64,000 nucleotides of DNA from a virus, in the IMG/VR virus record IMGVR_UViG_3300021440_000014, positions 32,001 to 96,000 of that record. One strand, written 5' to 3'. The position numbers were made by a program, and so were the translations under genes. Below are positions 1-61,635 of the stretch, piece by piece. Under the pieces are notes generated by a model, which worked only from the letters and a program-made list of their open reading frames with translations, was not told where the DNA came from and searched no databases. Numbering within the stretch: the first letter of the stretch is position 1; each line of letters opens with the position of its first letter.

Positions 1-3000
1 AGGAGAAACTCCCGCCCCGACTTCTCTACTTACTGCTTTAGAAAGAGATGAATAGTTAGGTATTAATCCTTTTGAGGCCGGAATTAGTCCAGAATCCCTC
101 AAGTATTTAGTTAAACTTAAGTCGTTTAGACCAACTTCCCTGCTTCTTCCAAATGTTCCATTTTTTACTAGAAATTTTAATTTAGGTTGAGCAAAAGCAT
201 TAGTAATAGCCTCTGCAACCGATTCAAGTTTATTTACATTTACTATTTTATTGGAAATTTTAGCAAAATCATTTTCTCCTGCAACAGAAATACCAGTTGC
301 AGTATTAAGGGTTTTTCCTCCTAGTTGAGAATGAGTTTCATCAAATATTTTAGAAGGGATTCTACTCGTTATATCTAGCTTGTCGTCAAGGAAATGAGAG
401 TATTCATGAATTAAGGCTCTTGAAGTTTTTCTGGCGGAAATAGACTGAAGATCTTCCTTCATTCTGCCAGAGAGTTGACCGTATCCTCCTTTGAAGCCAA
501 AATTATCGTCTAGTTTTCCAGCTAAATTATCAAAATTTAAAGTAATTAAATCTGGATCATATACCGCTTTTGTGCTAGAAGATAATTTGCCCTCTATCTT
601 TCTAAAATCTTTTGCCACGTCTAATTTTGGTGTTGCGCCCACTTTACCAAGAATAAAATTAGAATATTTCTCGAAAGATTCAGTAGAGAGGGCTTTACTT
701 ATAAATTCATCAGGAGTAAGAGAAAAATTACTATAAGACTTAGGATCTGTCACCAACCTATCTTCTAAATTAATACTGCTAAATAAATTACTCGCGTAAT
801 TAGGAACTATTCCAGCCGCGCCAAATTGAGATTTCAACTCTTTTAATCTTGATTTAGATAATTTAAATTCTCCGGGATCTATAACGGTCGCCAAGCTTCC
901 ATTGGCCACCATTGCGGCAAATGTTTGAGAATTTTTATCTCCAAATCCACTTAAGAAATTAGCAGAATTTCTGCTATTAGCTAAAGCAGAAAGCTCCCTG
1001 CTTAATCTATCATTAACAGTAAAATTACTTAAATGAAGATCATCTGGCGTTATCCCATGATTTAAATCGAAATTTTCAAAAGCCTTACCTATGTATGAAG
1101 TTGAAAAAAGTCTAGTTACTGCGTCAGAAGAGTTTTCATGACTCGTTGGATCTTTTATAAACTCTTTATAAATACCTCCTTCAGATAATGAATTATTTAA
1201 AGATTTAAAAATTTTAGGAAATTTTACTCCCGGCAAAGAAATACTTTCGAGATACTTAGAGATTAAGTATTCTTTTTCAATCTCTCTAGGATCTACAAAT
1301 TTTTTAAATTGTTTAAAACCAACTGGAACGCCGCCAATTAGCTGTTTTAAATCTAGGAATCTTGCGTTTTGGCCTATCTCCCCAATTTGCTCTCCTTGTA
1401 TTCTATAATTTGGAACAAGACCAGCCGCAAAATTCTTATATGGATCAAACCCATGAACATCTTCGAAAGCTTTTTTATAGTTCGTGCCAGCTTCACTATT
1501 TTTAGGAGGAAGGATAGCGGGTTGACTCATCCCGAAGTCTTTAACTTGTTCTTTTGAGTTATAAATCACATTTCCCATGCCGGGAACTGACATCCTCTTT
1601 ATAGAACCAGCTTCGTAACCACCTAGCAATGCGCCAACCTTTTCTTTCGTCTCTTCAGGGATTAATCCTCCAGCAGCGGTCTTACCCGGAGAATTTGGCA
1701 ACACTATTTTACCAGCCTTATCAAAGCCTATCTGATTAGATTTCAAGAAATTAGCTGAAGCCTTCGATGTTACAGCGTCTAATCTAGAAATAGCCTCAAG
1801 TCTTTGCTGAGTAAGAGACAATAATGTTCTTTCTACTTCAACTTGAGAAATTGTTTTATTAAGTATTTTTTCCCTTAATCCCGGCTCAAAAGAAAGAGTA
1901 TCTTTCAGTGCCTCGGATATCTGTTTCTGTTGCAGCGCAAATTTATTAAGACCAGCAAAGCTTTTTAATGCGTCTGCCGTAAATTCTGCGAAAGATAACG
2001 CCAATTTACCTACAGCAATAGAGACTATCGCCAGCCCCGGACCAGCAATAAACTCTCCAAGTCCCTTCAAGGCACCATCAGCTATTTGTCTTCCAATTCC
2101 TTTTGACTGTTCGCCAACATCCCCAAATAAAGACTCAACTATTCCCGTCGTGTTTTTTATAACAGGAGCGATGGTAAGATTGCCAACAGTTTCACCTAAC
2201 TGCCTAAATGTCTCTTTACTCTTGTTGAGAACCGAAGCCAAGCTTTTATTATATTCTTCGTTCCTTTTGCTGGCTTCGTTTTGGGACTGAGCGGATTTTT
2301 GAGTGGCTTGATCTACTACGCTGTATTCCTTAGACAAGTCGCCAAGCAAGGCTTTTAAAATGTTAATTTGATAAACGCTACCGACAAGTTCAGCTAAGTA
2401 AGACTGTTGAGAGTCCGAAGCACTATTAAAAGTTCCAGCAAAGTTCTTTAAAATCTCTGACACTGGCAAAATCTGTTGTCCCGCCCCTCTTACTACAGTT
2501 CCCAAACTTTCTAGTTGAGCAATAACTTCTGGTCTTTCTATTCTTGTGAAAATAGTCTTTAAAGCGTTACCAATTACAGCACCACCACGGGCAGTTGTCT
2601 GCTGCGCTGAGGTAACAAAACCTATCAAGCTGTCAATACTAACTCCAGCTTCGGCAGCGGTGCTACCCACACGTTTCAGAGCCTCGGCTAAGTCTTTTGA
2701 GCTAACGGCAAATGCCGCGTCAACATTAGCGAATTTGTTAATTACTTCTGTAGACGTTAATCCAGCCTTTGAAAAGCTGTTAACCGAAGCCGTAAGAGAT
2801 TCTACGCTATCTTCAAGAGATATACCGGCTTGCCTAGATAAAATAGCCGCATCTTTAAGTCTTATAAGGGTTTCTTCCGCACCAAGACCTTGACGTGCTA
2901 ATTCAGTAGCTCCAGCCGCAATTTCAGAAAAAGACTGACCCGTATCTTTAGCTATACTAAAGATTTCGTTTTTAAAATTAGAAAGCTCTTCAGCATTTTG

Positions 3001-3315
3001 ATTTAGGAGAGTATTTAATTCAGTAAATGACTTGTTAACTTCTATAGTAGAAGAAACTAAGCTTTTTATGCCCTGAGATACCTGAAATATTAAACCAGCA
3101 GAAGCTCCGAAAGCTATGACACGCGCATTCGCAGCCGCCATAGATTTCGAAAACTCGTCTGTAGAAGAGGTTATTTGACCAAGGGGTCTAGTTAAGGAGC
3201 TTGAATTGAGCCTTCTATTAAATAAATTCTGTATTTTAGACGCACTTTCCTCAGCTTGCCTAAATAAAGGAGAAAAATCTCCACCAACAGATAAATTGTA
3301 AGTCTCAACTGGCAT
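1..3315 (-). CDS. Tail tape-measure protein with internal kinase-like and HExxH metallopeptidase domains (3' end outside window)
   Basis: Hand translation from ATG at 3315 (MPVETYNLSVGGDF...) stays open to nt 1 (1105 codons). The N-terminal half has a typical TMP core (FSIAKDTGQSFSEIA...ELARQG...FAVSSKDLAEALKRVGSTA...GAVIGNALKTIFTRI). It lies downstream of the tail-tube and chaperone genes. Confidence 0.9.
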   Translation of the reverse strand, partial: MPVETYNLSVGGDFSPLFRQAEESASKIQNLFNRRLNSSSLTRPLGQITSSTDEFSKSMAAANARVIAFGASAGLIFQVSQGIKSLVSSTIEVNKSFTELNTLLNQNAEELSNFKNEIFSIAKDTGQSFSEIAAGATELARQGLGAEETLIRLKDAAILSRQAGISLEDSVESLTASVNSFSKAGLTSTEVINKFANVDAAFAVSSKDLAEALKRVGSTAAEAGVSIDSLIGFVTSAQQTTARGGAVIGNALKTIFTRIERPEVIAQLESLGTVVRGAGQQILPVSEILKNFAGTFNSASDSQQSYLAELVGSVYQINILKALLGDLSKEYSVVDQATQKSAQSQNEASKRNEEYNKSLASVLNKSKETFRQLGETVGNLTIAPVIKNTTGIVESLFGDVGEQSKGIGRQIADGALKGLGEFIAGPGLAIVSIAVGKLALSFAEFTADALKSFAGLNKFALQQKQISEALKDTLSFEPGLREKILNKTISQVEVERTLLSLTQQRLEAISRLDAVTSKASANFLKSNQIGFDKAGKIVLPNSPGKTAAGGLIPEETKEKVGALLGGYEAGSIKRMSVPGMGNVIYNSKEQVKDFGMSQPAILPPKNSEAGTNYKKAFEDVHGFDPYKNFAAGLVPNYRIQGEQIGEIGQNARFLDLKQLIGGVPVGFKQFKKFVDPREIEKEYLISKYLESISLPGVKFPKIFKSLNNSLSEGGIYKEFIKDPTSHENSSDAVTRLFSTSYIGKAFENFDLNHGITPDDLHLSNFTVNDRLSRELSALANSRNSANFLSGFGDKNSQTFAAMVANGSLATVIDPGEFKLSKSRLKELKSQFGAAGIVPNYASNLFSSINLEDRLVTDPKSYSNFSLTPDEFISKALSTESFEKYSNFILGKVGATPKLDVAKDFRKIEGKLSSSTKAVYDPDLITLNFDNLAGKLDDNFGFKGGYGQLSGRMKEDLQSISARKTSRALIHEYSHFLDDKLDITSRIPSKIFDETHSQLGGKTLNTATGISVAGENDFAKISNKIVNVNKLESVAEAITNAFAQPKLKFLVKNGTFGRSREVGLNDLSLTKYLRDSGLIPASKGLIPNYSSLSKAVSREVGAGVSP

Positions 3316-56551: not shown

Positions 56552-56628
56552 TGGCCTGTAGCTCAATTGGTTAGAGCAGAGCACTCATAATGCTTTGGTT
56601 CTCGGTTCAAGTCCGAGCAGGCCAACCA
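56552..56628 (+). tRNA. tRNA with CAT anticodon (elongator Met or Ile2)
   Basis: TGGCCTG/CAGGCCA acceptor, loop CTCATAA, GTTCAAGTC, CCA. Confidence 0.92.
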
Positions 56629-56676
56629 ATTTAAGTTTGACTTCTTAGAAAAAAAATGCTAACATCATAAACACTT

Positions 56677-56753
56677 GCTTCCGTAATTCAATTGGATAGA
56701 AATTTTGCCTTCTAAGCAAAAAGTTATAGGTTCAAATCCTATCGGAAGCACCA
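56677..56753 (+). tRNA. tRNA-Arg(TCT)
   Basis: GCTTCCG/CGGAAGC acceptor, TTTGC-CTTCTAA-GCAAA, CCA. Confidence 0.92.
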
Positions 56754-57136
56754 ATTTTTCTTTACTTAATCTAAAAAACATATATCATAAAAATATGAAA
56801 GTAACCTCTGAACCAATTACTGAAAAAGAAGAATTTCCTTTTATTGGCTTCTACACACTTAGCAAAGGGGACGGCTTGTTCTTGTTACAGGATATGGAGC
56901 AAATAAATCTTTCTATAAAGGAATAATGATTACTCCAAGTGATGTTTATAAAGCTTTTGCATATGATAGTGATCATTGGGACAAAAACACAATAAAACGA
57001 TTTAGAGGCAAAATTACAATCGAGTGCCCTTAATTTATATTATTGACTTCACGCAAAAATCTGTTAGATTAGTAACGTTCTTTGATGATTTCTAATTATT
57101 AGGTGTAATAGTAGATATAAGTTAATATCTGCTATT

Positions 57137-57694
57137 ATGCCAATATGTAAAAAATGCAACAACAAGTTTCCGTGTAAAATTACCTTAAATGGTAAAGAAA
57201 AGTTTTTACATACTAGATCTTACTGTTTAGATTGCTCTCCATTAGGTAAAAATCTAGGCTATGATTTAAGAAAAGAATCGAACGATAAGAAATATATTGA
57301 TTTATTCCAAAAAGAAGGAGTAATAAAATGTAGAATATGCGAAAGATCTTATCTAAGGAAAAAGAAAAACAATTTAATATGTTCTACTTGTAGGAATTCT
57401 TATTTTAGATTTAATCAAAGAAATAAAGCGATAGATTCATTAGGCGGGAAATGCTCTAAATGCGACTGCAAAGATAAAGAAGTATTACAGTTCCACCATA
57501 CAGATCCAAATCAAAAAGATTTTAATTTATCTGGCAACTGGTCACAAAAAGAATGGTTGACTTTAGAAAAAGAAATAGTAAAATGTATTTTATTATGTGC
57601 TAACTGCCATTCTAAAGAACATCGAAAAGACTTAACAAAAATCATTGAATTTTATGGGCAAGTGGCGAAGTTGGATGAAACGCAGCAGACTTAA
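57137..57694 (+). CDS. Free-standing HNH endonuclease
   Basis: Several CxxC; LGGKCSKC...LQFHHTDPNQK...KCILLCANCHSKEH. Confidence 0.9.
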   Translation: MPICKKCNNKFPCKITLNGKEKFLHTRSYCLDCSPLGKNLGYDLRKESNDKKYIDLFQKEGVIKCRICERSYLRKKKNNLICSTCRNSYFRFNQRNKAIDSLGGKCSKCDCKDKEVLQFHHTDPNQKDFNLSGNWSQKEWLTLEKEIVKCILLCANCHSKEHRKDLTKIIEFYGQVAKLDETQQT

Positions 57695-57744
57695 AATCTG
57701 CTACATAAGAAACACCGTGGGTTCGATCCCCACCTTGCCTACCA
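57656..57744 (+). tRNA. tRNA-Leu(TAA)
   Basis: GGGCAAG/CTTGCCT acceptor, GCAGA-CTTAAAA-TCTGC, long variable region, GTTCGATCC, CCA. Confidence 0.9.
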
Positions 57745-57753
57745 TTTTAATAT

Positions 57754-57872
57754 TTACCCGTGCTTATGCTAACCGAGAAGACTTTAGGGTCAACAAGTGT
57801 GAGAGAGCACAACTGAACACAAGTAGGTTCCTATCGAAAGGAAACGAGTAGAAGGACTCTCGCAGCGGGTAA
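57754..57872 (+). ncRNA. Unknown structured RNA
   Basis: Closing helix TTACCCG../..CGGGTAA enclosing three hairpins. Confidence 0.5.
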
Positions 57873-57883
57873 CTCAATTTAGT

Positions 57884-58004
57884 GGATACGTGGCGGAAAA
57901 TAGACGCAGCATAGTGTATAACTTGCACGGATAAGTAACCTATACTATGACAGAGGGAGAACGTGTATGAACCCTCATGCAAGTGTCAAACCTTGCCGTA
58001 TCCA
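57884..58004 (+). ncRNA. tRNA-like RNA with enlarged anticodon and variable arms
   Basis: GGATACG/CGTATCC acceptor, Leu/Ser-type D arm, GCAAG/CTTGC T stem. Confidence 0.6.
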
Positions 58005-58046
58005 TATTCTATTTGACATTTAGTAAAAATATCATATTCTTTAGAT

Positions 58047-58286
58047 ATGAAATACATAGCTTTTGAATGCAATGGGCAGGTGATGCCAATTCTGTTTGCA
58101 GATCATACGGATCATTCAATGATTGCCCGCTGTGTCAAATCAGAATATCCCGGCTATAAGGTTAAATCCGCTGGTTTTGCGGGGCGCAATGGATCTGTAT
58201 GGGGCGAATCAGTTTCGCTTAGAGTCAAGTCCGATGTCGAAGATGAATTTTACATAAAAAGAATTTTGGGCATTGACATTGATTAA
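58047..58286 (+). CDS. Hypothetical phage protein
   Basis: MKYI...PILF...H...SAGF...GESVSL pattern; own promoter. Confidence 0.75.
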   Translation: MKYIAFECNGQVMPILFADHTDHSMIARCVKSEYPGYKVKSAGFAGRNGSVWGESVSLRVKSDVEDEFYIKRILGIDID

Positions 58287-58311
58287 AAATAAGTTAAACT
58301 CTTTATCTAAC

Positions 58312-58387
58312 GCGCTTATAGCTCAATTGGTAGAGCACGACACTTTTAATGTTGTGGTTTCGGGTTCGAGTCCCGATGGGCGCACCA
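58312..58387 (+). tRNA. tRNA-Lys(TTT)
   Basis: GCGCTTA/TGGGCGC acceptor, CGACA-CTTTTAA-TGTTG, CCA. Confidence 0.92.
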
Positions 58388-58429
58388 ATTTAACATTGAC
58401 TAAAAATAAAAATAAGCTAGGATAGAACT

Positions 58430-58615
58430 ATGGAATTCACTGAAGCTCAAATCAGCAACTTCAAAGCTTACGAAAAAGTCCGTGCGAGCGGCAAATATAA
58501 TATGTTTGATCCTAGAGCTATACGAGCGTCTGGATTGCCTCAGAGCGAATACATTTTCGTTATGGATAATTATACTGCATTGGAAGCGGCGGCAGCAGAA
58601 CAAATAGCTAACTAA
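58430..58615 (+). CDS. DUF5049-like small protein
   Basis: VRASGKYNMFD...NY..L motif. Confidence 0.65.
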   Translation: MEFTEAQISNFKAYEKVRASGKYNMFDPRAIRASGLPQSEYIFVMDNYTALEAAAAEQIAN

Positions 58616-58617
58616 TT

Positions 58618-58794
58618 TACTCATAGGTATAATAACAAGCAGTCCCATGCGGGATGAATGACAACCGCCAATCGTCATGGCGACAAATCAGCGGCTCCAT
58701 TATGACGAAAGAATGGAGTAAAGCGGCTTATTGGTCGCGAAAAACACCTAGAGTATGCCGTGAGAGTAAGCCTGATAAGGGAAGAAATCACGGC
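58618..58794 (+). ncRNA. Unknown multi-stem structured RNA
   Basis: TACTCATAGGT/ACCTAGAGTA closing helix, three inner stems, then a GCCGTGA/TCACGGC hairpin. Confidence 0.55.
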
Positions 58795-58837
58795 TAAATT
58801 TTCTTTACTTCTAATAAAAATAACTTAACCTTAAATC

Positions 58838-59104
58838 ATGGCTGAATTATTCAAAGTCTTGTTTGGTCGCTCTAAAAAGAGAATGAAAACCATCATGGTT
58901 GATAAATATCAAAAATGCGAGAATTACGTTCTTGCCCGCAGTAATGTTTTGGGTTTTCATGAAATTGTTAAAGCAGAAAAAGGCGAAGAGACTTGGAGGC
59001 AAAAATCCGCCACTGTAGGCGGCAATCGTTGTGAATCTGTCGGGCGGGTAGGCAAAGGCGCAAGTGGTTATATCTCAAAAAACGGCTTTAATCCTCATAC
59101 TTAA
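58838..59104 (+). CDS. Hypothetical protein
   Basis: Own promoter. Confidence 0.65.
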   Translation: MAELFKVLFGRSKKRMKTIMVDKYQKCENYVLARSNVLGFHEIVKAEKGEETWRQKSATVGGNRCESVGRVGKGASGYISKNGFNPHT

Positions 59105-59106
59105 AA

Positions 59107-59261
59107 TGAAATTCGCTCTTTACTTTTTACTTGGAGCAGCTTTAGCTTTAATGGGTTTTCCAATCTTTCCAAAAGAGGGATTCAATATCGTAAATTTTCT
59201 AATACTAATTCTTTGTATGCTTATCCTTAAAATTATTCTCGGCGAGAAAAACGAAGAATAA
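59107..59261 (+). CDS. Small two-TM membrane protein (MKFALYFLLG...)
   Basis: Two hydrophobic stretches; start approximate. Confidence 0.5.
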
Positions 59262-59296
59262 TTTGACTAATCAAAAATAAATGGTATTGTATATCC

Positions 59297-59371
59297 AACG
59301 AGCGGTAAACAACCCGTAGACGTAAAATTCTAAGGGAACCTGCCCAAATAGCTTTAACGTCATAGTAAAGT
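59297..59371 (+). ncRNA. Repeated small RNA candidate, copy 4
   Basis: TTGACT-16-TATTGT promoter; GCGGTAAACAACCCGTAGACGTAAAATTCTAAGGGAACC..GCTTTAACG..TAAAGT. Confidence 0.6.
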
Positions 59372-59430
59372 AAATAATAAAGTTAAAAAAAGAATTGATT
59401 TTAGTAAAAAATAGATTACTCTTTCCTTAC

Positions 59431-59649
59431 ATGAAAATCAAAAAGATTACCACTGGTTTTGTTATTCAAACTTTCGACACTGATACTGGTAAGTATGTCA
59501 ATCAGGAATTTGTGGCGGGAGATCAAGTTGATTATGAAAATCAAAAGGGCGTAACCCTTGATCCTCTTATGATGGAAAATTTGAATTTCGGCCCCTATGC
59601 CGCAAACGAGCCTTATCTTTCCTTTGATATGGTTCAACCTAAAAACTAA
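59431..59649 (+). CDS. Hypothetical protein (MKIKKITTGFVIQ...)
   Basis: Start revised to the ATG after the promoter. Confidence 0.7.
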   Translation: MKIKKITTGFVIQTFDTDTGKYVNQEFVAGDQVDYENQKGVTLDPLMMENLNFGPYAANEPYLSFDMVQPKN

Positions 59650-59684
59650 TTGACTTTTAATAAAAATAATCCATAATAACTTAC

Positions 59685-59909
59685 ATGAACATAATCGTTA
59701 CTAAAATTCACAATAACTCACTTGGCAAAGTTGTTTCCGCAAGCTCTTTTGATGAAGCTAAAGACATTCTGCGCGGCTGGGCAGAGAAACAGTTCCAACG
59801 TCCGCTCACCGATGAGGAGATCGACGACTTGGAAGATGAAATGGAAATTTACGACGATACCGATTCAGATAATATCTATTCTTTTTCGGTAGGCATAGTG
59901 GAAGAATGA
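59685..59909 (+). CDS. Small acidic protein
   Basis: Own promoter; acidic C-terminal half. Confidence 0.7.
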   Translation: MNIIVTKIHNNSLGKVVSASSFDEAKDILRGWAEKQFQRPLTDEEIDDLEDEMEIYDDTDSDNIYSFSVGIVEE

Positions 59910-59975
59910 ATTGACAATTTCAAAAAATAGATTAGTATTTACCTGTAGCGAAAAACTAACTAAATAAAAAAAAAT

Positions 59976-60968
59976 ATGGCTCATAAAATCAACAAACGCG
60001 ACATTCAAACCGGACTCACTCAAGCGTGGCATGGCAAGACTAACCTTGTGGAAAAGATTACCCGCGAGAATAGCGGCATCGTTTATCCCATGAGCAAGCA
60101 ACCTCTCTTGCTTCCCAACAAGACAGAAACGGAACATTTTGCAATCGTTAGCGACGACGACGGTTTGCCAATTGGTAATCCTGTTAAAAAGGGTTACAAG
60201 CTCATTACTAATGAGCAGATGCTTGACATTATCGACAAAACCATTGCCGGAACAAGTCACCAAATTGTTTCCATCGGTTCCGTTAGTAATCGCGAGAAAG
60301 TTTTCGCCTCGATTAAGGTATCAGATGATTTCATCGCGGCGGGACGCAAGACAGAGAATACCCTAAACATTCTTTGGGGTCATGGCGGTGTGTTCAGCGT
60401 CATGGGTCGTTCTAGCTTTACTGTCGTCGTTTGCGCGAATACCTTTCAAATGGCTTTGGTTACGGGCGGAAAAGATTTTGCCTTTCGCATGAAGCATACC
60501 GGCAACGCTGTATTGAAACTGGATAACTTCTCAGAAGCTCTCGATTCACATTACGGCGTAGTTGCTGAATTCCGCGCAGCAATGGAAGAGTTTTCTAATA
60601 CTTCCATTTCTAAAGTTGATGCAAAACGCGCAATTGCAGGCTTTCTTGTCGAAGACGAAAAGCTTAATCAAATGCAGAAATTGCCTACTCGAACAACTAA
60701 CGTCATTGAGCGCGTCAATCAGTTGTTTACTGGTGGTCCCGGTAACAAGGGCGAAAATCTTGCTGACTTGTTCAATGGTTTTACTGATTACTATACCCAT
60801 GAAAGCTCTGGAATTGGTAGTGGCGGGAAAGATAACTGGAAACAGTTTGAATCATCGGAATTCGGAAGCGCGAATCGTAAGAAAATGGAAGTCTTCGATC
60901 TTCTCTCTGATTCCGATGCTTTTAATAAGACACTTGTGCGCGGCGACAAGGTTTTGCAGCTAATGTAA
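59976..60968 (+). CDS. DUF932-family phage/plasmid protein
   Basis: AWHG, YKLITNEQ, VVCANT, MKHT, LFNGFTDYYTH, FGS. Confidence 0.85.
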   Translation: MAHKINKRDIQTGLTQAWHGKTNLVEKITRENSGIVYPMSKQPLLLPNKTETEHFAIVSDDDGLPIGNPVKKGYKLITNEQMLDIIDKTIAGTSHQIVSIGSVSNREKVFASIKVSDDFIAAGRKTENTLNILWGHGGVFSVMGRSSFTVVVCANTFQMALVTGGKDFAFRMKHTGNAVLKLDNFSEALDSHYGVVAEFRAAMEEFSNTSISKVDAKRAIAGFLVEDEKLNQMQKLPTRTTNVIERVNQLFTGGPGNKGENLADLFNGFTDYYTHESSGIGSGGKDNWKQFESSEFGSANRKKMEVFDLLSDSDAFNKTLVRGDKVLQLM

Positions 60969-61037
60969 AAACAAAATGGGGAAGTAACTAACCCATTTGA
61001 TTCTTTACTTTCTATAAAAATGAAATAGAATTTAGGT

Positions 61038-61352
61038 ATGCAAACGGAACCAGATATTCTTACAGAACATTACGGAGTATCTCAAGGGTATGATATACCT
61101 AGATTTAGATCGACATTAAATTCCTCATGCGTCAATTTTATTAAATGGCAGGAAAAGCGTTTAGACGCGAATTGCAGCAAAGTATGGTGGCAAAAAAATA
61201 GATTAGGCGAAACTTTTTTATTCGGCAAATTCAATTGCAAAGATAAAAGCTGGATACCTGTTACGCTTGCTTATTATTACCCGAATGTAGGTTTCGTCAC
61301 TCAAAGACGGGAAGTTATAGAATTTAGATTAGCCCATAACCCTTTTGATTAA
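61038..61352 (+). CDS. Hypothetical protein
   Basis: Own promoter. Confidence 0.6.
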   Translation: MQTEPDILTEHYGVSQGYDIPRFRSTLNSSCVNFIKWQEKRLDANCSKVWWQKNRLGETFLFGKFNCKDKSWIPVTLAYYYPNVGFVTQRREVIEFRLAHNPFD

Positions 61353-61556
61353 AAATATGTATTTCGGCCTAACACATTGGAAAGGTGACTTGTTCGATAT
61401 GTTCTTTTGCAGTGATATTTCCTTCCATACTTGGAATAAAGAAATCATTTCTGAACCCTTCATTGAGATTCCTTATTGGGAAATTGGACAATTGCTAGGA
61501 GGTAATTGACAAAACAGAAAAACCTGCTAAAGTATAAGGGTAGCAGATAGTTAAAT

Positions 61557-61635
61557 GCGCCATTAGCTCATCGTAGGTTAGAGCAGTCTCTTTATAAGGG
61601 TCAGGTGGATCGTTCAAGCCGATCATGGCGTACCA
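61557..61635 (+). tRNA. tRNA-Ile(TAT)
   Basis: GCGCCAT/ATGGCGT acceptor, loop TTTATAA (imperfect anticodon stem), GATCG-TTCAAGC-CGATC, CCA. Confidence 0.8.

Follow-up and report, generated by a model that had tools for sequence, protein, structure and literature searches.

A minimal protein-kinase-like domain carried as an optional cassette in a giant phage tape measure protein

The 64,000-nucleotide stretch of viral DNA analysed here (bases 32001-96000 of IMG/VR record IMGVR_UViG_3300021440_000014, a record of 172,010 bases rated complete; hereafter the window) opens with part of a minus-strand gene for a giant phage tail tape measure protein (TMP). Amino acids (aa) 638-834 of this protein form, with very high probability, a kinase-fold domain with intact catalytic residues. 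The domain represents an uncatalogued protein-kinase-like (PKL) family that is absent from Pfam and lacks most of the C-terminal lobe (C-lobe). Within the TMP it forms a self-contained cassette that is optional and occupies a variable slot, bounded by short linker motifs and by two conserved flanks. An earlier reading of the DNA letters and their translations, made without database searches (the sequence-only reading), had proposed that the TMP contains a minimal protein-kinase-like domain whose catalytic loop, D-x-H-x-x-N, is of the RIO/ABC1/APH type, and this proposal is now backed by a family profile, by residue conservation and by the predicted fold. We favour a role as an ejected, host-directed kinase effector, to which we assign a probability of 0.45-0.5.

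The carrier is a tape measure protein

The open reading frame (ORF) that carries the domain starts at window position 3315 and runs past the window start, so that the window holds its first 1105 codons. A further 5643 bases lie outside, and the full gene (genome 26358-35315, minus strand) encodes a protein of 2985 aa (P0002). The Pfam family PF10145 (PhageMin_Tail) matches aa 122-311 with 85 bits, where the cut-off is 33.2; within the first 450 residues there are matches to many PHROG TMP families (best E 1e-56), and the N-terminal 540 residues are 26-29% identical to the TMPs of large Bacillus, Brevibacillus and Lactococcus phages. In addition, the N-terminal region has matches at E ≤ 1e-40 to giant TMPs in more than 2300 metagenomic clusters. 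The ORF is thus a phage tail TMP, as identified by the matching TMP profiles, by its great length and by its place in the tail gene block. In relative P0069 the upstream genes follow a similar succession of sizes, and Phage-tail_3 is present in the downstream gene that converges on the TMP operon.

One motif, G-G-x-...-D-[DK]-[VI]-P-A-M-L-T-x-G-E-[YF]-V-[IV]-K-[RK]-S-A-V, is present twice towards the C-terminus of the protein (aa ~2540-2985; L002:2361-3700, outside the window), near aa 2590 and again near aa 2833, and is kept in relatives such as P0003.

Catalytic motifs and their conservation

Translation places all six kinase motifs named in the sequence-only reading in one frame of one minus-strand ORF, in the order it gave and at the positions listed in Table 1. 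The domain was also expected to end soon after the DFG-like motif, and the next linker motif indeed starts 22 residues beyond D813. The Gly-containing loop is present where it had been placed, but in degenerate form: its sequence, G-E-I-G-Q-N-A, has one residue inserted relative to the family pattern G-x-G-x-x-G-x-F, and Ala replaces the third Gly of G-x-G-x-x-G, whereas most homologs are canonical. The spacing between D759 and D813 is 54 residues; in standard kinases the catalytic Asp and the DFG Asp lie about 18 residues apart. The activation segment, the APE motif and helices F-I are absent from the domain in both the family alignment (A1, see below) and the AlphaFold2 model.

An exhaustive HMMER search of 1.84 billion representatives, with aa 628-842 as the query and a cut-off of E ≤ 1e-3, retrieved 28 proteins including the query, 8 of them at E ≤ 1e-10. 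Nearly all of these kinase-bearing proteins are 2500-5338 aa long, and the TMP N-terminus is common to 26 of the 28 (25 relatives and the query). Three matches are short (206, 494 and 757 aa). All three carry the linker motif and two of them break off within a second kinase module, for which reasons they look like TMP fragments, and the search yielded no clear stand-alone form of the family. Two kinase modules each are found in seven relatives (P0004, P0005, P0006, P0007, P0010, P0012 and P0014). The tandem copies that are long enough to judge keep the catalytic residues, the sole change being a conservative Glu-to-Asp substitution in P0012.

Alignment A1 of the 28 sequences, which are about 30% identical to the query, has invariant columns at G645, G648, E682, N764 and D813, while K668 and D759 are at least 90% conserved. 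When 36 modules were aligned to the family model, the Lys, Glu, Asp, Asn and Asp residues of the active site were kept throughout except for one Asp-to-Tyr change of the catalytic Asp and one Glu-to-Asp change. The catalytic-loop Asn and the DFG-like Asp are therefore invariant, and the catalytic Asp is present in all modules but one. A His two residues past the catalytic Asp, which completes the D-x-H-x-x-N pattern, occurs in 27 of the 33 modules that cover the position. The D/N/D triad, whose loss from homologs would have spoken against a kinase, is thus near-invariant. Such near-invariance of five residues across diverged modules argues for selection on catalysis. A chance coincidence of the motif set is ruled out by the conservation together with the fold.

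Profile searches and predicted fold

Searches with aa 620-850 alone found nothing in Pfam, in PHROGs, in PDB sequences (phmmer) or in 50,697 GenBank phage records (tblastn); the kinase signal emerges only with the family profile and the fold. A word-index homolog search with aa 628-1090 found a single relative. Used as a profile against all PDB chain sequences, A1 produced 493 matches at E ≤ 10 (best E 3.4e-4), the best 60 of which are all protein kinases, including CDPK, CDK2, MLCK, Src/Abl and CK1. Two printed profile-PDB alignments superpose the Gly loop, the beta3 Lys, the helix-C Glu and the D-L-x-x-x-N loop. It is these matches, along with the fold searches, that provide the link to the kinase fold that had been anticipated from the motifs. 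Among the Pfam models, Pkinase (PF00069) reached a best E of 0.027, in 2 of the 28 members, with no match for the window's copy; ABC1 (PF03109, E 0.1) and APH (PF01636, E 0.26) each matched one of the 28, and no member matched the RIO1/Bud32/Kdo models (PF01163, PF06293) at E ≤ 1. Since there is no room for them between the linkers, N- or C-terminal extensions of the ABC1/APH type are absent.

The AlphaFold2 model built on A1 has a mean predicted local distance difference test score (pLDDT) of 86 and a predicted template modelling score (pTM) of 0.83. Its elements run in the order strands b1-b2-b3, helix C, b4-b5, a long helix, the catalytic loop, a strand, three short helices, a strand, the DFG-like loop and a last helix. 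This is the bilobal kinase arrangement, in which an N-lobe sheet of five strands with helix C precedes a helical C-lobe that carries the catalytic and metal-binding loops. A Foldseek search of the PDB produced at least 365 matches at E ≤ 1e-3; every one of the 50 listed is a kinase, with Kae1-Bud32, LCK, DAPK, ULK1 and PRPK at the head. The template modelling (TM) scores by query were 0.41-0.53, and those by target peaked (0.43-0.48) for the small PRPK/Bud32 chains. In a VIA-align search of 48,161 chains the best 50 rows are all of kinase fold, with Z-scores of 11.3 for Rv3197 (ABC1/UbiB), 10.0 for RIOK3 and RIO2, 9.8 for APH(2''), 9.7 for RIO1, 9.5 for ADCK3, 9.0 for Bud32, 8.9 for OspG and Ark1 and 8.8 for NleH, values that are too close across kinase classes for the TMP kinase to be assigned to any one of them. 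A shape search of the ESM Atlas returned kinases throughout, with the best reciprocal TM (0.57/0.59) to a 199-aa cluster of RIO/Kdo type, and the Atlas feature neighbours include APH/Kdo-annotated clusters (scores 0.91-0.92). Among the 50 viral structures listed from BFVD, the named matches are overwhelmingly viral kinases or phosphotransferases and none is a TMP.

The kinase occupies an exchangeable slot

The linker motif G-[LFY]-[IV]-P-N-[FY] brackets the kinase and recurs at aa 1083-1088 and 1159-1164, the latter copy lying outside the window. An extended form, A-[SA]-x-G-F-[IV]-P-N-F, occurs 600 times in 145 family TMPs, compared with 14 times in shuffled sequences, and these occurrences cluster at 20-50% of the protein length. 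It may serve as a processing site, a docking peptide or a chaperone handle. The slot is framed by two conserved flanks, modA, which is 53% identical to its counterpart in P0003, and modD, with a mean column identity of 63% in alignment A2. Hydrophobic Gly/Ala-rich segments also flank the slot on both sides, one upstream (Table 1) and two further ones at aa 1449-1515, outside the window.

The stretch from modA to modD varies from 159 to 2505 aa (median 266) and measures 200-299 aa in 91 of 113 proteins. When the kinase-bearing proteins were cut at the motifs and clustered, 46 cassette groups were obtained, the kinase group being the largest because the proteins had been selected for the kinase. 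Representatives of 14 other cassettes matched no credible Pfam family. The kinase is found in none of the 117 closest TMP relatives, as defined by the N-terminus, which marks it as optional cargo and not as part of the ruler core.

The two flanks are themselves weakly alike (BLAST E 0.74), both showing the pattern ...G-A/G...S-I-K...P-G-L-G-x-V-Y-N-[ST]-K-[DE]... and ending in the PNY motif; judging from this resemblance, they may be diverged copies of one module of 70-90 aa.

Directly downstream of the kinase lies a second cargo cassette (aa 841-1082) with an HExxH motif. It has no Pfam match, and its relatives were found only in P0003, P0013 and P0032. An AlphaFold2 model from three sequences reached a pLDDT of 32, and the ESM Atlas feature scores (0.83-0.84) were uninformative. 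At a guess, its motif would suit a zinc peptidase.

Comparison with known kinases and delivered proteins

The best full-length structural agreement is with the RIO kinases and Bud32/PRPK. Like the TMP kinase, these have a bilobal core of about 200 aa with neither an activation segment nor the substrate-binding helices G-I, and they share its Lys-Glu pair, D-x4-N loop and metal-binding Asp. RIO proteins differ in having an N-terminal winged helix and a flexible loop, both absent from the TMP kinase, and the likeness is structural only. Unlike RIO and Bud32, the TMP kinase has a helical insert of about 35 aa before the DFG-like Asp and is embedded in a virion protein instead of being free in the cell. 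The ABC1/UbiB proteins (Rv3197, ADCK3) and the APH enzymes share the His two past the catalytic Asp, and Rv3197 has the top Z-score; however, the TMP kinase has no KxGQ motif, no N-terminal extension and no C-terminal helical substrate lobe.

NleH and OspG resemble the TMP kinase in their tiny cores (160-170 aa) without most of the C-lobe, with Z-scores of 8.8-8.9 over 130-135 residues. They are also delivered through a narrow conduit into the target cell and are active on arrival. There is no detectable sequence relationship, however, and they are free bacterial effectors used against eukaryotic cells, whereas the TMP kinase is an internal module of a phage tail that would be aimed at a bacterium.

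The T7 gp0.7 protein is a phage kinase as well, and it modifies proteins of the host as soon as infection begins. In contrast to the TMP kinase, it is produced from an early gene once the DNA has entered and is not a component of the virion or tail, and it was not among the best 50 viral fold matches in BFVD.

The polyvalent proteins of phages and plasmids embody the same idea: a C-lobe-less kinase that keeps its active-site residues stands among the many domains of a giant protein, whose delivery alongside the incoming DNA is presumed (Iyer, Burroughs, Anand, de Souza, Aravind 2017, PMC5512222). The hallmarks of that kinase are a conserved Gln in the N-terminal lobe's final strand and an insert that separates a conserved His from the catalytic Asp (PMC5512222). 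Compared by description only, these hallmarks are not evident in A1, where a conserved Lys-Glu occupies the strand and D759 has no His ahead of it. Verrucomicrobiota sequences among the Atlas feature neighbours are only a lead towards these kinases. The same paper cites the T7 gp0.7 kinase and nowhere mentions tape measure proteins (PMC5512222).

Enzymatic domains in TMPs have precedents of another kind. Additional catalytic modules occur in the TMPs of large siphophages: lytic transglycosylase annotations are found on SPbeta-like and Sundance TMPs, and relative P0145 carries PF01832. To our knowledge, the enzymatic domains of TMPs described so far work in the periplasm, on peptidoglycan, and do so without ATP; the kinase differs from these cell-wall enzymes in that it needs cytoplasmic ATP. 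A TMP-derived scaffold with exchangeable effector domains (Sle1) has been described in actinobacterial contractile injection systems (PMC13277306). A full-text literature search found no report of a kinase within a TMP, the kinase in the MinS1 paper being a separate ORF. Minimal kinase folds, phage kinases that hit host proteins and cell-wall hydrolase domains in TMPs are therefore all known already, and what is new is an uncatalogued PKL family in a new carrier.

Possible roles of the TMP kinase

In the mechanism that we favour, the kinase domain would be an active phosphotransferase, dependent on ATP, that travels as tail cargo. The TMP would be expelled ahead of the DNA and insert in the cell envelope; the cassette region would then reach the cytoplasm, refold and bind ATP, and the kinase would phosphorylate one or more host proteins ahead of any phage gene expression. 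Parallels would be the minimal kinases NleH and OspG, which bacteria send through a type III needle, and the delivered polyvalent proteins (PMC5512222). The sequence-only reading had likewise suggested that such a kinase, once injected, could knock out host defence before phage transcription starts.

Several observations and considerations weigh against an ejected effector. None of the Pfam kinase models scores above threshold in any of the 28 members, and the window's own copy has a degenerate Gly loop. An ejected effector presupposes that the cassette would reach the cytoplasm, an assumption that is no more than plausible. The N-terminal third of the TMP, which holds the cassette, would by analogy with studied phages be the last part to leave the tail. 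Three folded 23-kDa domains of a TMP trimer, side by side, would exceed the tail-tube lumen of about 4 nm, so that an unfolded stored state must be assumed. The domain has no recognisable substrate-binding lobe. The His of the D-x-H-x-x-N loop typifies enzymes of the APH/ABC1 type, many of them with small-molecule substrates, and the RIO and Bud32 proteins, which rank among the best structural matches, function chiefly as ATPases. Finally, the phage is uncultured.

The foremost alternative, which we regard as unlikely, is an ATP-driven switch acting in cis: a RIO/Bud32-like ATPase or autokinase would fold on encountering cytoplasmic ATP, hydrolyse it or autophosphorylate, and so act as an arrival sensor or a ratchet for TMP translocation and for opening of the DNA channel, leaving host proteins unmodified. 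Such a switch would suit the position of the kinase between hydrophobic TMP segments, the absence of substrate-binding subdomains from the model, the presence of RIO2, RIOK3, RIO1 and Bud32/PRPK among the best fold matches (Z 9-10 and top Foldseek rows) and the best reciprocal TM (0.57/0.59), which is to the 199-aa RIO/Kdo-type cluster. A mechanical role in ejection should, however, belong to the core of the protein, yet the kinase is missing from all 117 closest TMP relatives, and in some others it is tandemly duplicated amid unrelated swappable cassettes. The accessory distribution, the tandem duplication and the many unrelated cassettes together fit an arms-race effector better than a mechanical part.

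It is quite improbable that the enzyme is instead a small-molecule or lipid kinase, whose substrate would be a lipid of the envelope or a precursor of the cell wall, located at the inner membrane (aiding penetration), a host metabolite or a signalling nucleotide. The best matches of the sequence profile are Hanks-type protein kinases, and the C-terminal helical lobe with which APH-type enzymes bind their substrates is absent; these points stand against the D-x-H-x-x-N loop in 27 of 33 covering modules and the APH/Kdo annotation of the Atlas feature neighbours (0.91-0.92), which would favour a small substrate. The top structural match to Rv3197 (Z 11.3) and the matches to ADCK3 and many APH/macrolide phosphotransferases (Z 7.7-9.8) point the same way, but the Z-scores of the kinase classes differ by no more than about 2 and do not discriminate between them.

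Least probable of all is a role in the producer cell or in virion structure, by late action, ahead of tail assembly, on assembly factors or host proteins or as an inert globular plug or spacer that the TMP either tolerates or loses by cleavage, for although the Gly loop of the window's copy is degenerate, a folded domain would be hard to fit in the tail tube and the linker motifs could be processing sites, the five catalytic residues are kept almost perfectly in 36 diverged modules, and a late intracellular task would be served more simply by a free gene, of which the exhaustive search gave no clear example.

A wider version of the effector reading, in which the TMP of this large clade of uncultured phages would also serve as a programmable effector-delivery platform, with a slot between the two flanks for one to a dozen exchangeable, motif-separated cargo domains and the kinase would hit targets of host defence or takeover before transcription, appears doubtful to us.

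A conserved, catalytically intact kinase in a TMP would imply that some of the ruler protein enters the cytoplasm and is at work in it, and this would bear directly on two long-open questions, the fate of the TMP after ejection and the way in which DNA crosses the inner membrane. If the effector reading is true, the kinase would offer a new route of pre-transcriptional host manipulation, beside capsid-packaged proteins, and would be the first known ATP-dependent, cytoplasm-acting enzyme riding in the tail lumen. Its place among several swappable cargo modules suggests that the tail ruler also delivers enzymes into the host. The punctuated cassettes expose dozens of uncharacterised cargo families, none of them Pfam-matched among those tested, and the cassette architecture suggests a natural scaffold for protein delivery into bacteria. 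The TMP kinase family itself could be added to Pfam as a new PKL family.

Table 1. Features of the TMP gene in the window (window positions; residues numbered from the TMP start)
Feature	Residues (aa)	Window position	Strand	Basis
TMP gene, first 1105 codons	1-1105	1..3315	-	ORF list, translation, PF10145, PHROG
PhageMin_Tail (PF10145) region	122-311	2383..2952	-	Pfam
Hydrophobic Gly/Ala-rich segment upstream of the cargo slot	422-440	1996..2052	-	Kyte-Doolittle scan
Conserved flank modA, ahead of the variable slot	545-631	1423..1683	-	phmmer; 125 of 146 family members
Linker GLVPNY, upstream boundary of the kinase cassette	632-637	1405..1422	-	motif scan
Minimal protein-kinase-like domain	638-834	814..1404	-	homologs, alignment A1, profile against PDB, AlphaFold2 model, fold searches
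Gly-rich loop QIGEIGQNA between strands 1 and 2	643-651	1363..1389	-	alignment A1, model
VGFKQF	665-670	1306..1323	-	translation
Beta3 Lys	K668	1312..1314	-	Lys in 34 of 34 modules covering the position
EIEKEY	678-683	1267..1284	-	translation
Helix-C Glu	E682	1270..1272	-	invariant in A1; Glu in 33 of 34 covering modules
IYKEFI	715-720	1156..1173	-	translation
Catalytic loop HGITPDDLHLSNF, with D759, H761 and N764 (D-x-H-x-x-N)	753-765	1021..1059	-	A1, module alignment
Helical insert, catalytic loop to DFG-like Asp	769-804	904..1011	-	model secondary structure; length varies in A1
DFG-like metal-binding VIDPG, with D813	811-815	871..885	-	invariant Asp
Linker GIVPNY, downstream boundary of the kinase cassette	835-840	796..813	-	motif scan
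Second cargo cassette, HExxH (HEYSH at 394-408)	841-1082	70..795	-	H, E and H invariant in 3 sequences
Linker GLIPNY	1083-1088	52..69	-	motif scan
Conserved flank modD, start (continues off the window; also L002:7842-8000)	1089-1158	1..51	-	alignment A2; 127 of 146 family members

Genome surroundings and more distant sequences

Closing the series of genes on its strand, the TMP gene meets a convergent plus-strand block, which lies just beyond the window start (genome 17731-26375). The last gene of this block overlaps the TMP stop by 18 bases, and the block includes an ORF of 1431 aa. On the other side, the 13 minus-strand neighbour genes in window 3353-30000, which include ORFs of 1495, 637 and 506 aa, gave no PHROG match and no Pfam match above cut-off; a single sub-cut-off Pfam match was the only one among the neighbour genes scanned. 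The phage lineage is very poorly charted.

Contig CAZDRR010000001.1 (L004/L006; 138,977 bases), binned as 'Candidatus Saccharibacteria', carries a family TMP with a kinase cassette (E 5e-53) and is probably a misbinned phage contig. The TMP of another relative lies in a contig of a Flavobacteriales metagenome-assembled genome and has no kinase. In 401 genomes of the phylum of that assembly, the A1 profile did not find the kinase family at family-level strength and gave only weak matches to ordinary Ser/Thr kinases (best E 5e-7), the top one being a Hanks-type kinase that matches PF00069 at 1e-54. A genome of the same phylum encodes a stand-alone ORF of 215 aa (P0151, L012:1294-1941, minus strand) with a Gly loop, V-F-K, D-x4-N and I-D-Y-E and no Pfam match; it is an uncatalogued mini-kinase and at best a remote relative of the TMP cassette (hhalign probability 36%).

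Further along the window, a loose group of five tRNA genes (Met-CAT, Arg-TCT, Leu-TAA, Lys-TTT and Ile-TAT) lies at positions 56552-61635 on the plus strand.

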